Source: a virus
Direction: 5' to 3' (one strand)
Virus record (IMG/VR): IMGVR_UViG_3300007734_000760
Location: 64,001 to 128,000 of that record
Length of the DNA: 64,000 nucleotides
Below the pieces are notes generated by a model. It did no database searches, was not told the origin of the DNA, and saw only the letters and a program-made list of their open reading frames with translations. Made by a program: the position numbers and the translations under genes. Of the stretch, positions 30,651 through 39,341 are shown piece by piece. The number at the start of each line of letters is the position of its first letter. The stretch's first letter is position 1.

Positions 30651-30663
30651 AACTTAATATAAT

Positions 30664-30694
30664 TTAATATACGAATAAATTTCGTATAAGCCAA
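30664..30694 (-). promoter_or_regulatory. Host-type (Bacteroidota-like) promoter
   Basis: TTGG-N19-TATATTAA; same spacing as four other copies. Confidence 0.55.
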
Positions 30695-34926: not shown

Positions 34927-34953
34927 AACTTTTTTTTAATTTAATATAAAAAT

Positions 34954-34976
34954 AAAAAAGACTTCCTTGGAAGCCT
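34954..34976 (-). terminator. Probable intrinsic terminator
   Basis: AGGCTTCC-AA-GGAAGTCT plus T run. Confidence 0.5.
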
Positions 34977-35005
34977 AATTAATTCTATAAATCTTTTATG
35001 TTAAT

Positions 35006-35438: not shown

Positions 35439-36215
35439 TTATAAAAGTAAAGACTCTGCTACATAAATTCCATGTGCTCCACTAACAGTAATACCACGAG
35501 CACTTAAAGCATCTCCTACAAAATGTACATTTGGATAGTCATTTAATGATAAATTATTATAATTTACTAGTGGTTCAGGACTTAAATACTTGACCTCGGG
35601 CATATATACGCCCCAATCATCTCCCATTTCAGGAAATACAATTTGCATTTCTGTAATAAAATCTTCAATATATTGAGCATATTCTTCACCTAATGCTTCA
35701 AATAAAGAATCCATTGTATCTACTTGAATTGCTGATACTGTATTGCCTTCAGATGTTAAAGCTGGTTTACGAGTACGATTAGGTGAATAATAAGTGCCAG
35801 TACCATCAATTTGTAATTTTTTAACTACTTCTCTACTCCATTTAAATGGATCTTCAATACCTTTGATTTCCATTAAAATACCAAAATTAGTCATATCATT
35901 TCTAAATTGTTCACCTTTTTTAGCATGACCATTGTAAGTAACATCACCATATGTTTCTTCAACAGCTACATATGCTGCGTTATTATTTGTACAAAATGAA
36001 CGTAATGATACTTTATCAAATTTCTTATATAATTTAAAATCGTAACTTACATCAATTAATTTCTGGAAATATTTTTGTGGTGCTTCAAAACGGACCCCCA
36101 ATTGCACACTCTTGCTTTCAGTAGGTAAATCATATTTTTGAGCTAATTTAGCTGAGAAATCAATTCCAGCTTTTCCTGTACCTACAATACATTTATCAAA
36201 TTTTATTTTTCTCAT
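35439..36215 (-). CDS. FAD-dependent oxidoreductase, C-terminal half
   Basis: VGTGKAG, GVRFE.P, RSFC.N....VA.E, NGHA, TNFGIL, PEVKY and VGDA...RGI motifs; ATG 36215 lies just after the HEG stop. Confidence 0.85.
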   Translation of the reverse strand: MRKIKFDKCIVGTGKAGIDFSAKLAQKYDLPTESKSVQLGVRFEAPQKYFQKLIDVSYDFKLYKKFDKVSLRSFCTNNNAAYVAVEETYGDVTYNGHAKKGEQFRNDMTNFGILMEIKGIEDPFKWSREVVKKLQIDGTGTYYSPNRTRKPALTSEGNTVSAIQVDTMDSLFEALGEEYAQYIEDFITEMQIVFPEMGDDWGVYMPEVKYLSPEPLVNYNNLSLNDYPNVHFVGDALSARGITVSGAHGIYVAESLLL

Positions 36216-36216
36216 A

Positions 36217-36843
36217 TTACTTGTTTTTATATTTCCATTTATAACCAAATGCTGTTTTTATTTTACCTTTACAAGCTAAATTTATACAACCATTTGTAAT
36301 TTTCTTATTTAAAGATAAGTAAGCTTCTGAAATAGAAGACCATTCTTTAATAAAATTATCTTGTAAATCATATTGAAGAATAGATTTATTCATAACCCCC
36401 ATCATAGATTTACTTTTCTTTTCACAACTCTCCTTACTCATCTTTTTACCTTTATTAGGTGATATATGGCCTTTTAACCCTTCAGATATTTTTCTTTTAG
36501 ATTCTTCAGAGTGTTTCATTCCTGTAGTACCAGCTTTAACACCACATTCTGCTATATTAGCTAATATATAACCTTTATTTCTTAAATCCAATTCTATTTC
36601 TCTTTCTTTTAATAATGCCTCTTCTTCACTTAATCCTTCAAATAATATTTTAGATTCAAATACACCATTATTTTTATTTACAATATTATGCCAGTATTGG
36701 TTTCTACCATATTTTGATTTATCTCGTTTAGGTATTCCTTTTCCAACATAAAATGGTTCATTTATATCAGGTCGTATATGAATATAAACTATAAAATTAT
36801 TGTTTTGTTTTTTTCTCGTGATATTTTTGTTTAAGTTTTTCAT
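36217..36843 (-). mobile_element. GIY-YIG/NUMOD homing endonuclease gene
   Basis: IVYIH...FYVGKG..R; NUMOD3-like GMKHSEESKRKIS; NUMOD1-like LQYDLQDNFIKEW...AFGYKW; start uncertain. Confidence 0.8.
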
Positions 36844-36940
36844 CGATTTTTTCTTTATTAGACCAGTAATATTTCTTACTATATTCTCGTTGTTTAAGAA
36901 TACGTTCATCTTCTGTTTGGTATTTTTTGATACGTCCCAT
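36797..36940 (-). CDS. Small basic 47 aa ORF absent from the track (MGRIKKYQTEDERILKQREYSKKYYWSNKEKIDEKLKQKYHEKKTKQ)
   Basis: ATG 4 nt after the TATTTATA motif; overlaps the HEG, which lies in its +1 frame. Confidence 0.55.
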   Translation of the reverse strand: MGRIKKYQTEDERILKQREYSKKYYWSNKEKIDEKLKQKYHEKKTKQ

Positions 36941-36972
36941 CGATTATAAATATTACAGATCTAAGAAAAAAT

Positions 36973-37299
36973 CTAAGAAAGTGCCTCTATTTTTGATTTT
37001 AAACTTTCTAAATTATCAAAAGGTTTTACTTTAGATAAATCCCACCCTAATTCACCTGCAGATTTTGTATCTCCTGTTGAATTCTTCATAATGATATAAT
37101 CATCTAAATCTTCTCCTAATTCATTTTCTAATGAGTATAATACTGATTTTAATCTATCAATAGGTAAAGAAGTATAAATAGGTTCAGTACTTAAATAAAT
37201 ACTATAGTTATTTATATGGCTTGGGTGGGTAAATTTATTTTCACTTAATACTTTATTAATTTCCTCTTTAATAATTTGTTGTAATTCAGATTTTTTCAT
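36973..37299 (-). CDS. Putative internal-head cargo protein
   Basis: MKKSELQQIIKEEINKVLSE leader; own TATTTATA motif. Confidence 0.6.
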   Translation of the reverse strand: MKKSELQQIIKEEINKVLSENKFTHPSHINNYSIYLSTEPIYTSLPIDRLKSVLYSLENELGEDLDDYIIMKNSTGDTKSAGELGWDLSKVKPFDNLESLKSKIEALS

Positions 37300-37312
37300 G
37301 TTTATGTTTTGA

Positions 37313-37320
37313 TATAAATA
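37313..37320 (-). promoter_or_regulatory. Putative late promoter TATTTATA
   Basis: Abuts the stop of the oxidoreductase N-half; upstream of the inserted cargo gene. Confidence 0.6.
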
Positions 37321-37839
37321 TTAGTCTTTTAATATTATCTCACCAGTTTCAAAATCAATATCAGTAACTTCCGTATTCCAAATGAAGTTAACTCCTTTAT
37401 CAATTAAATATGAATACCAAGCCTTAGCAATCTCATGTAAATAGTTTGAGCCAATGTGCCATACTGGGAATAAACGTAAACCAAAATATGGTTTAATAAA
37501 TTCAGGTTCTTTTTGTGGATCAGAACAGAATATTTCTTCTGGTTTAGGATGAAAACGAGTAAAGTTATCTACTACTTGTTTCATTAATTCCATTGCTTTA
37601 TCTTCACCACAATATTTTGCTAATTGACCTCCAATTTCAGTATGGTAAGTTAATTTACCATCACTCCAACCACCAGCACCTAACATACCTTCCATTACCT
37701 CTTCAGGTTTGCGGTTATATGGATCTTGTCCTTTATCTATGATTGTGATTAGATCTCCAGGATATCCATTATCTACTAATTTAGTAGCAGCGTTAATACC
37801 TGCTACTCCTGCTCCAATAATTACAATTTTTTTATTCAT
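37321..37839 (-). CDS. FAD-dependent oxidoreductase, N-terminal half
   Basis: Rossmann IIGAGVAG; EG..GAG.WSDGKL; HIGS; ends just after TEVTDID. Confidence 0.85.
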   Translation of the reverse strand: MNKKIVIIGAGVAGINAATKLVDNGYPGDLITIIDKGQDPYNRKPEEVMEGMLGAGGWSDGKLTYHTEIGGQLAKYCGEDKAMELMKQVVDNFTRFHPKPEEIFCSDPQKEPEFIKPYFGLRLFPVWHIGSNYLHEIAKAWYSYLIDKGVNFIWNTEVTDIDFETGEIILKD

Positions 37840-37843
37840 ATTT

Positions 37844-37874
37844 TAAATATATAATCTTTTATCTAAGAAGCCAA
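37844..37874 (-). promoter_or_regulatory. Host-type promoter
   Basis: TTGG-N19-TATATTTA. Confidence 0.55.
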
Positions 37875-37952
37875 AATAAAAGTGGCATCCTTTTTAGGAC
37901 GCCACAGCTGTCATATTTTATCTCTTTTGAGCGACCGGCTATGAATCGGTCT
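37873..37952 (-). ncRNA. Pseudoknot + terminator RNA element, copy A
   Basis: GACCG-AUUCAUAGC-CGGUC hairpin whose loop can pair with downstream GCUGUGG; terminator GUGGCGUCC/GGAUGCCAC-UUUU. Confidence 0.55.
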
Positions 37953-37962
37953 GCATTTTTAA

Positions 37963-38233
37963 TTAATATTTAATTCCTAAAAACTTAGCTAGTTTATCAA
38001 ATTGATCATAATCCATCCAATCAACCCATAATACTATTTCTCCTTTTTTTATTCATTACAAAATTTTTAGGTGTAATAAAATCTTGTAATTCAGGGTTAT
38101 CTAATATAGCATCTTTAGTACTATTATTCATTATGATTTTATCTTCTTGATAATCAAATTCTTGATTTTCATTAATCAAACCCGCCAATTTCTGCATGCG
38201 TTTAAATTCTTCAGATAATAATTGTTTTTTCAT
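37963..38233 (-). pseudogene. MQKLAG-tagged small protein with apparent +1 frameshift at A7
   Basis: Removing one A at 38044-38050 extends the protein to NKKGEIVLWVDWMDYDQFDKLAKFLGIKY, ending at 37963 just before the terminator. Confidence 0.5.
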
Positions 38234-38259
38234 TATGTATTAGTTATATATTATACATA

Positions 38260-38730
38260 TTACATAACCCACTCAGGTTTATTATTTAATTTTTTCCAAT
38301 CTAATTTTTTAATTTTTATTTTATCATTAATATAAAAATTCTTATATGCTTCTATAGTATTTTCTTTTTTAAATTCTTCGGGCATACATTGTGGAGGTTC
38401 TATAAATCCATTATCAGGTAAAATAGGCTCATTTTGTTCTAACCATTGTAATACAGTTTTAGTAGCATGTGATTTACCGTAACGTTTTTCAAATTCATTA
38501 CAAATTTCTAAACCATGTTTAACTAACCATCTATAATGATGTATGGATTGTCTTACCCAAATGGTTGATGGATGGTTTTTATGAGCTCGTTTATATGGAG
38601 CTTCTCCACCTGTTTCCCAATGGGCTGTACAACACATTTGTGCAGATTCTATTTGCATTTTACGAATATGATCGTCTGCTAGTTGTTGTGCAGCAATAGT
38701 AGGATTTTCATTAATATAAAATATATTCAT
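38260..38730 (-). CDS. Pyrimidine-dimer DNA glycosylase / endonuclease V-like protein
   Basis: MNIFY....P..AA....D.H..KM..ESAQM..TAH, YK..H.NHP...W, RYGK.H and PQCMP motifs. Confidence 0.75.
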   Translation of the reverse strand: MNIFYINENPTIAAQQLADDHIRKMQIESAQMCCTAHWETGGEAPYKRAHKNHPSTIWVRQSIHHYRWLVKHGLEICNEFEKRYGKSHATKTVLQWLEQNEPILPDNGFIEPPQCMPEEFKKENTIEAYKNFYINDKIKIKKLDWKKLNNKPEWVM

Positions 38731-38734
38731 ACTT

Positions 38735-38765
38735 TAAATATAAAAACTGTTTTTTTGTAAGCCAA
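38735..38765 (-). promoter_or_regulatory. Host-type promoter
   Basis: TTGG-N19-TATATTTA. Confidence 0.55.
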
Positions 38766-38767
38766 AT

Positions 38768-38841
38768 AAAGAAAGCCCAATCTTTTAATTGGGCCACTAC
38801 TCCATTAATTTGTTTAAACGAACATGTAATGAATATGTTCT
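38768..38841 (-). ncRNA. Pseudoknot + terminator RNA element, copy B
   Basis: GAACAU-AUUCAUUAC-AUGUUC hairpin whose loop can pair with GUAGUGG; terminator GCCCAAU/AUUGGGC-UUUCUUU. Confidence 0.55.
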
Positions 38842-38846
38842 ATAAG

Positions 38847-39341
38847 TTAAAATTGACCTCTATATTCTTCCATTTTTGTAATCCATGAACTATTAAACAT
38901 ATCACCATTATTGTATAAATAATTATAAAATTTAAAATCATCAGGATCATCATCAGGAAAAGGAAATTTTACTAATCCATTTTCTAATCCAAATTTAAGT
39001 AAAAAAGTATTTGCTACTCTATTGTAGTAATCATTAGTAGGCTCTTTATCTACTAAATCACCTAATTCTTCTGTATGGCCATCATATTCAGCTAAATCAA
39101 AAGCTAGATTATTTGTAAGATCACTATCTAGATTATTTAAAAATTTACTCTCAATAAATATATCGTTACTTAATCTATTTGTCTGATATCCATAAAAGGA
39201 CGATTTGTTTTTTTGAATTCCTATATCATAATCATTTACATAGTCAGCTATTATAGGCTTAACATCATTATACATGTTAGATAGTGATTTAAAAGGCTTA
39301 AACACCTTAATTTCTTTTAATATGTTGATTAGTTTAATCAT
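38847..39341 (-). CDS. Acidic putative internal-head cargo protein (IKVFK family)
   Basis: MIKLINILKE-IKVFKP; paralog of the next gene. Confidence 0.65.
   Translation of the reverse strand: MIKLINILKEIKVFKPFKSLSNMYNDVKPIIADYVNDYDIGIQKNKSSFYGYQTNRLSNDIFIESKFLNNLDSDLTNNLAFDLAEYDGHTEELGDLVDKEPTNDYYNRVANTFLLKFGLENGLVKFPFPDDDPDDFKFYNYLYNNGDMFNSSWITKMEEYRGQF

Follow-up and report, generated by a model that had tools for sequence, protein, structure and literature searches.

A pseudoknot that shares a strand with an intrinsic terminator in AT-rich phages, and its candidate role as an antitermination switch

The window analysed here, a 64,000-nt stretch (positions 64,001 to 128,000) of the IMG/VR virus record IMGVR_UViG_3300007734_000760, raises the question of what is encoded at two nearby intergenic sites where a hairpin, a linker and a terminator recur. 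A previous annotation made from the letters alone, hereafter the sequence-only reading, had described two minus-strand copies of a pseudoknot-plus-terminator RNA whose P1 stems differ in sequence yet remain paired, and both copies are indeed present as described. They and their neighbours map as follows:

38847-38849, minus strand: stop codon TAA upstream of copy B
38841..38846, minus strand: conserved 5' flank of copy B (6 nt, CTTATA), between TAA and P1
38820..38840, minus strand: P1 hairpin of copy B, GAACAT (38835-38840) pairing with ATGTTC (38820-38825)
38826-38834, minus strand: 9-nt loop of copy B, ATTCATTAC; positions 3-9 form the P2 5' strand
38801..38819, minus strand: A/U-rich linker of copy B (pseudoknot loop 3), first nt G, last nt A
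38794..38800, minus strand: P2 3' strand (P2') of copy B, GTAGTGG; 7/7 pairs with loop TCATTAC, last 2 nt opening the terminator stem
38764..38795, minus strand: intrinsic terminator of copy B, GGCCCAATT/GATTGGGCT (38774-38795) plus T tract, by terminator scan and fold
38733..38765, minus strand: promoter-like motif TTGGCTT-N16-TATATTTAAA of copy B, directly before ATG (38730)
38260..38730, minus strand: DenV-like gene downstream of copy B (156 aa, Pyr_excise, phrog_624)
38021..38233, minus strand: ORF of 70 aa with N-terminal EEFKRMQKLAGL tag, upstream of copy A
37952..37957, minus strand: 5' flank of copy A (6 nt, AATGCA)
37933..37951, minus strand: P1 hairpin of copy A, GACCG (37947-37951) pairing with CGGTC (37933-37937)
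37938-37946, minus strand: loop of copy A, ATTCATAGC
37909..37932, minus strand: linker of copy A, with an optional small hairpin CTC-AAAA-GAG
37902..37908, minus strand: P2' of copy A, GCTGTGG; last 4 nt (GTGG) form the terminator stem base
37873..37905, minus strand: intrinsic terminator of copy A, GTGGCGTCC/GGATGCCAC (37882-37905) plus T tract, by terminator scan and fold
37842..37874, minus strand: promoter-like motif TTGGCTT-N16-TATATTTAAA of copy A, before ATG at 37839
37321..37839, minus strand: N-terminal part of a FAD oxidoreductase gene, downstream of copy A

In both copies, loop positions 3-9 pair with the tail strand at 7/7 positions through an AG:CU to UA:UA change, which bears out the claimed covariation of loop and tail. 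P2' overlaps the terminator arm by 4 nt in copy A and 2 nt in copy B, again much as proposed, and each copy follows an N-terminally tagged gene and precedes the TTGGCTT-N16-TATATTTAAA motif, of which about 40 occurrences exist genome-wide on the coding strand. Nested folding yielded P1 and the terminator for both copy A (z = -4.3) and copy B (z = -3.2), and the optional linker hairpin of copy A recurs at four other loci (L035, L055, L065, L015). As for the neighbouring genes, the FAD oxidoreductase gene of the source genome is split by a homing-endonuclease insertion, the DenV-like protein had no match in PDB or NCBIfam, and the upstream ORFs of other instances have only the tag in common with the 70-aa ORF, for which no homologue supports a frameshift. 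A generic search for a hairpin followed by a 7-nt complement returned about 1200 matches in the AT-rich source DNA; because two copies alone are compatible with chance, the case for the pseudoknot rests on homologues.

More than 130 distinct homologues, at the least, were collected from IMG/VR contigs, all belonging to related AT-rich phages of ~160 kb; judged by capsid protein, their closest isolate is a Flavobacterium phage. These genomes carry 0-2 elements of roughly 85 nt from P1 through the terminator, always a single copy per site and without tandem arrays. BLAST searches of the INPHARED isolated phages with the 3-kb region and with the element alone gave no match, and a scan of bacterial assemblies (one genome for each of 185,579 species) gave four, two of them due to chance and two lying on phage-like MAG contigs; as far as these sequence searches reach, the element is confined to phage DNA. 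At gathering score, no Rfam 15 family matched the 64-kb window or 19 related loci (136 kb), in agreement with the proposal of an unrecognised structured RNA. Relaxing the threshold to E<=10 brought up nothing but terminator-like tails, from unrelated sRNAs and leaders, far under the cut-offs, and none of the pseudoknot riboswitch or ribozyme families in Rfam. With no description of the motif found in the literature, the element is, by these comparisons, a previously uncatalogued folded RNA.

The homologues define an H-type pseudoknot composed of a P1 of 5-6 bp, a 2-nt loop 1, a P2 that is 7 bp in all instances, a loop 2 of invariably 0 nt and an A/U-rich loop 3. P1 is 99.6-99.7% paired, with both-side changes at all 5 pairs. 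The covariance model and IMG/VR search likewise upheld the pseudoknot itself, since P2, in which the loop pairs with the tail, is 98.8-100% paired and shows compensatory, both-side changes at 3/7 pairs: CG to UA (6), AU to UA (9) and GC to AU/UA (6). Many of these sequences are close kin, so that instance counts overstate independent events, which we estimate at about 5-6 for P2. Several controls support the helix. Slid alignments were only 21-43% paired, vs 98.8% for P2; none of 500 shuffles attained the whole-structure scores; RNAalifold found P2 unprompted; and in a second homologue set the two free P2 pairs were 100% paired. Scanning IMG/VR with the test positions set to N recovered 76 elements, all 76 intact with 7/7 pairs. 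At pair 21:75, the two matched states account for at least 105 (C/G) and 5 (U/A) sequences, vs 2 (C/A) and 0 (U/G) for the mixed ones. Moreover, the G.U pairs U20.G76 and U23.G73, which are strand-specific, are retained in more than 90% of sequences, pointing to a coding-strand RNA and not to duplex DNA as the object of selection.

Conservation extends to unpaired positions. The 5' flank conforms to yWTAyA (A at -1 in 130/130, T at -2 in 120/130, T at -4 in 126/130), and the linker of 18-30 nt starts with G in 128/131 instances and ends with A in 131/131. The bulged A at -1, the AU of loop 1, the G after P1 and the A before P2' are invariant and would suit recognition by a ligand or a protein. 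A third helix between the 5' flank and the linker 3' end was rejected (-0.53 kcal/mol for matched vs -0.76 for mismatched partners), as was a TAA at -9 to -7 as part of the RNA; this triplet is present only where it is a real stop codon, which is most simply read as ORFs abutting the 6-nt flank.

How the pseudoknot relates to the terminator is revealed by P2', which also contributes to the terminator 5' arm in all 131 unique instances, the overlap being 2 nt (24 instances), 3 (5), 4 (68), 5 (7), 6 (2) or 7 nt (25), and never 0. Changes in the shared strand are matched in each of its two partners. Reading loop, P2' and terminator 3' arm in that order, position 6 is either C,G,C (n=106) or T,A,T (n=6), position 2 is G,C,G (n=23) or T,A,T (n=4), and position 3 is A,T,A (n=35) or T,A,T (n=5). 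Even the variants with a 7-nt overlap keep P2 by compensation, as in GATGTGG accompanied by loop ATATC and 3' arm CACATC. In the 25 variants of this kind the terminator takes the whole of P2', which rules out a pseudoknot in RNA that has been terminated. The P2 duplex has a computed energy of about -7 kcal/mol, and its formation sequesters P2' such that the terminator drops from -17.1 to -7.4 kcal/mol (computed), with 3-9 unpaired nt then separating it from the U tract. In intrinsic terminators, a gap of this size before the U tract should abolish termination. The three helices are conserved by covariation, and full-length P2 and the full terminator stem exclude each other in every instance. 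A small L102-type subclass of roughly 8-9 loci is without a canonical terminator after P2', the other terminators of the source genome are without a pseudoknot, and a terminator alone occupies the equivalent site at about 30/79 DenV loci.

With little better than even confidence, we favour a reading in which the element, placed where a transcription unit ends, is a cis-acting switch between a pseudoknot antiterminator and a terminator. During transcription, the P1 hairpin would fold first and its loop would next pair with the P2' tail strand, generating the H-type pseudoknot. As long as P2 holds, the terminator stem would be shorter and drawn off the U tract, and polymerase would read into the next gene, usually that of the FAD oxidoreductase or of a DenV-type repair enzyme; displacement of the loop by the terminator 3' arm would instead stop transcription. 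P2 is weak, having two conserved G.U pairs whose G's pair with C in the terminator, and this makes termination the probable default and a stabilising effector the probable requirement for read-through. Regulatory use of the competition, its direction and an effector are what we infer from these patterns. The effector may be a small ligand, which would make the element a riboswitch, a phage or host protein, or the kinetics of a terminating ribosome, each carrying roughly a third of the weight. A ribosome at the stop codon would reach P1 in only ~60% of instances, which argues that ribosome coupling is no general requirement. Among the three functions offered by the sequence-only reading, an antitermination switch is the best supported, given the universal 2-7-nt overlap and the covariation of the shared strand with both partners. 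A 3' stability element is weakened by the 25 variants whose finished terminator consumes the entire P2 3' strand, and nothing favours an antitoxin mimic, the copies being single and the downstream genes of Pyr_excise and Pyr_redox types, not toxins.

The genes around the element are also informative. About 85% of elements precede a gene for a ~450-aa FAD oxidoreductase or a DenV-like protein; for 114 instances, the downstream gene encodes an intact oxidoreductase homologue (~450 aa) in 69, a DenV-like protein in 26 and a canonical T4-type DenV in 1, the others including homing endonucleases and a few further genes, with GIY-YIG genes directly downstream at several loci. On related contigs, 68 covariance-model matches adjoin DenV-like genes. 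Upstream genes of different instances are mutually unrelated, and the association with the downstream genes looks regulon-like. The AlphaFold model of the oxidoreductase (pLDDT 83) has as its nearest structures VP0956 (PDB 3nlc), which is uncharacterised, and HI0933-type flavoproteins, with distant homologues in Campylobacter phages; as a clue to a ligand this fold was discarded, its nearest neighbours giving no assignable function. Two copies flank the DenV cassette in the source genome and at six further loci (L015, L033, L041, L044, L048, L085). Elsewhere, the L038 copy (1084-1153) ends exactly at P2', and L032 and L040 retain the terminator only; such truncated copies suggest recombination at the element.

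A stop codon lies 6-19 nt before the element in about 90% of instances; in 25 of 57 unique ones its distance from P1 is exactly 6 nt. Downstream, a family promoter motif, TT[TG]G-N19-TAnnTT[TA], was detected in 92/107 instances vs 2/107 shuffled regions, and nearly every downstream gene has its own predicted Bacteroidetes-type promoter, whose -33 element falls inside the terminator hairpin in 48/92 instances. Pseudoknot, terminator and promoter of the next gene are packed within about 120 bp.

Some of these features speak against a switch. The promoter of nearly every downstream gene directly follows or overlaps the terminator, so that regulated read-through is not obviously required for expression, and the element sits after a stop codon and not in a 5' leader behind a promoter, a position that is unusual among riboswitches. 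In the 24 instances with a 2-nt overlap, the pseudoknot and a near-full terminator could coexist. The same observations lend themselves to a constitutive 3'-end or insulator module, in which a fixed pseudoknot plus hairpin would terminate efficiently, without sensing, shield the overlapping promoter from read-through and guard the 3' end of the upstream mRNA from exonucleases. The constant placement straight after a stop codon (6-19 nt in about 90%), the adjoining or overlapping promoter (48/92 with the -33 element within the hairpin) and the lack of an identified effector fit such a module, as do variants with a 2-4-nt overlap, where a P2 remnant of 3-5 bp could stack between P1 and the terminator. 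However, compensatory changes maintain P2 even in the 25 variants whose terminator uses all 7 nt of P2', relatives manage without the element (a plain terminator serves at about 30/79 DenV loci), and the other terminators of the source genome dispense with a pseudoknot. We consider this explanation possible, yet doubtful. We regard as unlikely the most specific form of the switch, namely an orphan riboswitch or dedicated phage antitermination device, restricted to uncultured Flavobacteriia-type phages, whose pseudoknot would bind a small molecule or protein reporting UV, DNA damage or redox state and so open the terminator before the genes for the DenV-type pyrimidine-dimer glycosylase and its partner flavoenzyme.

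Two further explanations place the function elsewhere. The segment of ~85 nt might be a small RNA that is stable, or might cleave itself or undergo processing; derived from the 3'-UTR or started from the promoter-like TATAG flank, it would act in trans, for instance via the loop AUUCAU. The conserved TA(T/C)A just 5' of P1 and a 3' end set by the terminator would suit it, and the pairing of a hairpin loop with the strand 5' of a second hairpin recalls the layout of pistol ribozymes. In the source genome, the loop AUUCAUA even complements UAUGAAU at both downstream start codons; this pairing was dismissed as coincidence, since ATGAAT opens only 12/69 oxidoreductase genes and variant loops have their compensating changes in P2' and not in the start codon. 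Upstream, where the DNA is unrelated coding sequence, there is for that reason no conserved -35/-33, the Rfam ribozyme families are absent even at E<=10, and the covariation of the terminator 3' arm with P2' is left unexplained, all of which makes a small RNA quite improbable. Still harder to credit, and highly improbable in our judgement, is a recombination or homing site acting as DNA, with incidental RNA pairing, that would flank mobile cassettes in the manner of PeSLs. Suggestive of it are the two copies bracketing the DenV cassette in the source genome and six other loci, the truncation at P2' in L038 and the lone terminators of L032 and L040, together with the GIY-YIG genes downstream of several elements and the oxidoreductase gene split by a homing endonuclease. 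Nonetheless, three-helix compensation and the conserved G.U pairs operate on one strand and neither is predicted by selection on duplex DNA, and recombination at the element is compatible with an RNA function.

At ~85 nt the RNA is compact, and the comparative evidence that it has two competing folds is unusually clean. To our knowledge, structured regulatory RNAs of Bacteroidota phages have hardly been explored, and there is no known case of one controlling a DenV-type repair gene. An effector, if it exists, would show which signal abundant aquatic phages monitor to express a UV-repair enzyme and an uncharacterised flavoenzyme, and were the damage- or redox-sensing reading true, the element would be the first known example of an RNA that senses such a signal and controls DNA repair encoded by a phage. 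Fitting pseudoknot, terminator and promoter tightly into about 120 bp may also prove a useful natural design for an insulator, and with a covariance model of the family many phage contigs from metagenomes would be better annotated.

Comparison with known systems places the element near several of them. Its resemblance to type III ToxI is limited, since it lacks tandem repeats and precedes genes of Pyr_excise and Pyr_redox_2 types, not an endoribonuclease toxin, and the element alone matched none of the pistol, hatchet and twister-sister ribozymes at E<=10. It has in common with preQ1-I (RF00522) the small H-type pseudoknot, the 5-6-bp P1, the A-rich loop 3 and the terminator that comes next. 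In contrast to preQ1-I, its P2 has 7 bp instead of 3-4, the absence of loop 2 removes the ligand-reading C, loop 3 is variable (18-30 nt), the pseudoknot competes directly with the terminator, giving ON logic, and the adjoining genes are for DenV and a flavoenzyme, not for queuosine; cmscan gave no preQ1-I match on the element at E<=10. The RAT antiterminators of BglG/SacY/LicT are also short, overlap the terminator 5' arm and need stabilising, as this one would, and the bulged A and sequence-conserved helices of the element fit protein recognition, but its antiterminator is a pseudoknot and not a simple hairpin. A search for the CAT_RBD domain (PF03123) found it in the control genomes but not in the 159,934-bp phage genome, and an ANTAR search found nothing in the controls either.

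T4-type PeSLs (promoter-early stem-loops) combine a stem-loop with a promoter and are not known to include a pseudoknot or terminator competition. Similarly, the element is a repeated terminator-plus-promoter module flanking variable accessory genes in a plastic region, but its promoter, compared by description, is of the Bacteroidetes TTG-N19-TAnnTTT type. The HK022 put sites, two stem-loops just after the promoter that modify polymerase processively and act without further factors, are phage cis-acting RNAs that let polymerase pass terminators, as the element would; the element differs from them in abutting one specific terminator with which it has a strand in common. In the fluoride/crcB (RF01734) and ZTP (RF01750) riboswitches, the 3' strand of the pseudoknot overlaps the 5' arm of an intrinsic terminator, and the folded pseudoknot blocks termination. 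Unlike these, the element has no Rfam match, lies after a stop codon between genes and, in the assemblies searched, occurs in phage DNA only, and no candidate ligand follows from its gene context; what it has in common with these ON-type switches is a P2' that doubles as part of the terminator 5' arm, with conservation of both alternative helices.

The window belongs to an IMG/VR virus record of 159,934 bp that carries direct terminal repeats and has a G+C content of 27.6%; every window gene is encoded on the minus strand. Two intergenic stretches are built alike. After the stop codon come a flank of 6-11 nt, the hairpin P1, whose loop has 9 nt, and a linker rich in A and U. A 7-nt tail strand (P2') follows that complements loop positions 3-9 to give the helix P2, then a G+C-rich hairpin followed by a T tract, and finally a promoter-like motif and the start codon (ATG) of the following gene.

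37938-37946, minus strand: copy A loop, ATTCATAGC, on P1 GACCG/CGGTC
37902-37908, minus strand: copy A P2', GCTGTGG
37882-37905, minus strand: copy A terminator (terminator scan)
38826-38834, minus strand: copy B loop, ATTCATTAC, on P1 GAACAT/ATGTTC
38794-38800, minus strand: copy B P2', GTAGTGG
38774-38795, minus strand: copy B terminator (terminator scan)

The sequence-only reading had described both copies accurately, including the overlaps between P2' and the terminator (4 nt in A, 2 nt in B). Nested folding returned P1 together with the terminator (z-scores −4.3 for A and −3.2 for B). Ahead of copy A (37963-38053, minus strand), a second frame continues past an A run (38042-38053) as ...GEIVLWVDWMDYDQFDKLAKFLGIKY to a stop at 37963-37965, 11 nt before P1; as judged from the sequence, the 70-aa ORF could end this way by a frameshift or slippage, for which no supporting homologue was found.

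Because ~1200 sites in such DNA satisfy a naive query for a hairpin of 5 bp and a G.U-tolerant complement of 7 nt, two copies are insufficient to settle the matter and homologues decide. With the DenV-like protein encoded downstream of copy B we retrieved 80 related IMG/VR loci, ~45 of which carry the element upstream of that gene, with the following loop and tail types.

Loop types and their P2' partners
ATTCATAGC: GCTGTGG
ATTCATTAC or ATTCATTGC: GTAGTGG
ATCTATAGC: GTTGTAG
ATTTATATC: GATGTAG
ATTCACAGC: GTTGTGG

A covariance model limited to P1 and part of the terminator recovered 68 instances in DenV-related loci. In their alignment P2 was 98.8% paired, with two-sided changes from CG to UA (6), AU to UA (9) and GC to AU/UA (6), and P1 was 99.7% paired with variation on both sides at all five pairs; none of 500 shuffles matched any whole-structure measure, and slid controls paired at 21-43%. 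Hairpins picked solely by P1 and loop type all had a perfect 7-nt partner except two (one truncated copy, one with 6/7 pairs), so that selection bias is small. Scanning IMG/VR with a pattern that presupposed no pairing (N at loop positions 7-8 and P2' positions 2-3) gave 81 matches, 76 of them with intact P1; P2 paired 7/7 in all 76, the two free pairs were 100% paired, and a new type emerged (ATTCATATC:GATGTGG). The 5 matches lacking P1 are chance hits. In three further scans, likewise free of a pairing assumption, unique matches with intact P1 had C/G at pair 21:75 at least 105 times, U/A 5 times, C/A twice and U/G never. Covariation among homologues thus bears out the pseudoknot proposed from the two copies. 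Loci L344 and L372 carry natural elements whose pair 21:75 is a C.A mismatch (loop ATTCAT with GTAG); these may represent intermediates of evolution or switches that have been weakened.

The family has a compact anatomy, the whole unit of pseudoknot, terminator and next promoter spanning ~120 bp. P1 comprises 5 bp (106 instances) or 6 bp (25), loop 1 is always AU, P2 has 7 bp and loop 2 is absent, while loop 3 measures 18-30 nt, begins with G in 128/131 instances, ends with A in 131/131 and holds a small hairpin in some. The conserved 6 nt ahead of P1 read yWTAyA, with A at position −1 in 130/130; in 98% of instances the nucleotide at −2 is able to pair with the one that opens the linker, leaving an invariant bulged A. 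The upstream ORF stops 6-19 nt ahead of P1 in ~90% of instances (exactly 6 nt in 25/57); these ORFs are unrelated to one another and simply adjoin the element. Broken copies also occur: at L038:1084-1153 P1 and linker are identical to the full copy in that locus and the break falls exactly at the expected P2' start, and at L032:1867-1953 and L040:2396-2483 the terminator and last P2' bases are kept and P1 is lost. Their sequences suggest recombination or deletion at the element.

P2' also contributes to the 5' arm of the terminator in 131/131 unique instances, by 2 nt (24), 3 (5), 4 (68), 5 (7), 6 (2) or 7 (25). When the overlap is 7 nt, the 3' arm of the terminator (CCACAGC, CTACAGC or CACATC) is loop-like and pairs with the entire P2'. 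Wherever P2' changes, both of its partners change, as evidenced by the triplets of loop, P2' and 3' arm at positions 2 (G,C,G in 23; T,A,T in 4), 3 (A,T,A in 35; T,A,T in 5) and 6 (C,G,C in 106; C,G,T in 19; T,A,T in 6). The computed energy of P2 is about −7 kcal/mol, and that of the terminator shifts from a mean of −17.1 to −7.4 kcal/mol with P2' unavailable, the shortened hairpin then usually lying 3-9 nt off the U tract. Intrinsic terminators whose hairpin does not reach the U tract terminate poorly. Two distal P2 G.U pairs are conserved as G.U, their G's being paired to C when the terminator forms; therefore, P2 is kept weaker than its competitor. A subclass (L102, L120, L141, L143, L168, L187, L200, L210 and L220; e.g. 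L102:2222-2321, minus strand), in which P2' is followed by CCCCACAA...GGATTCCC, has no canonical terminator and keeps promoter and oxidoreductase gene; here P2' may be located in the loop of a small GGG/CCC hairpin instead.

Complete genomes hold 0-2 copies. The downstream ORF (n=114 instances) is a ~450-aa FAD/NAD(P) Rossmann oxidoreductase in 69, the DenV-like gene in 26, a canonical T4-type endonuclease V in 1 (Pyr_excise, E = 1.3e-14) and a GIY-YIG or other homing-endonuclease-like gene in a few. The predicted oxidoreductase model (pLDDT 83) is nearest to VP0956 (PDB 3nlc), an uncharacterised protein. Downstream of copy A this gene is split (35439-37839, minus strand) into an N-part (172 aa) and a C-part (269 aa), matching positions 2-162 and 184-418 of the phrog_12409 profile, separated by two ORFs, one of 108 aa and one homing-endonuclease-like with NUMOD1/NUMOD3 (36217-36909); unsplit homologues have ~450 aa, and no intron RNA family was detected. 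GIY-YIG or similar homing-endonuclease-like genes separate the element from its usual downstream gene at L140:4931-5458, L183:3389-4045 (minus strand) and four loci of the same kind, each directly 3' of the element. The locus is an insertion hot spot for genes of this type. Upstream genes are varied, many with an RMQKLAG-type N-terminal tag; the form (E/D)EF(K/L)RMQKLAG(I/L) is common to the 70-aa ORF at 38021-38233 and to ORFs upstream of the element in many related loci, and the small proteins that bear it are otherwise unrelated, alignable in the tag only.

In 92/107 instances, versus 2/107 shuffled regions, the stretch from P2' to the next start codon contains TT[TG]G-N19-TAnnTT[TA], which corresponds to the Bacteroidetes primary-sigma promoter consensus; 82 of the 92 have a 19-nt spacer, and the −33 element lies within the terminator hairpin in 48. 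A promoter-like T[TA]GGCTT-N16-TATATTTAAA, fitting the Bacteroidetes TTG-N19-TAnnTTT consensus, recurs ~40 times in the whole virus genome, always on the coding strand, and is absent from ~25 kb of tagged/structural genes upstream of copy B. Examples in the window are:

30662-30694, minus strand
34945-34977, minus strand
37842-37874, minus strand
38733-38765, minus strand

Flavobacterium phage vB_FspM_immuto has a capsid protein 56% identical to the one encoded here; a member of the Flavobacteriia is therefore the probable host.

Together, the universal overlap and three-way covariation support the main inference of the sequence-only reading, an unrecognised structured RNA and possible antitermination switch. 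The predicted competing helices are what an antiterminator/terminator switch should show, and we favor, with moderate confidence, a pseudoknot antiterminator that would compete with the intrinsic terminator under a putative effector: P2 formation would withhold P2' from the terminator, leaving a shorter hairpin away from the U tract. One main weakness of this reading lies in the promoters that the downstream genes carry themselves. Its main rival is a constitutive end-and-insulator module, which seems less likely. The competing-helix pattern is hard to square with a pseudoknot that merely decorates a mature 3' end.

No Rfam 15 family matched the element; it was not found in isolated phages, and a scan of bacterial and archaeal assemblies gave two phage-like MAG contigs as its only true matches. 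The phage genome encodes no CAT_RBD protein. As proposed, the element would operate in the manner of an ON-type pseudoknot riboswitch's expression platform or of RAT-type protein-dependent antiterminators, though it is a member of neither. With its terminator-promoter unit repeated around accessory genes, it is also reminiscent of the PeSL cassettes found in T4-type phages.
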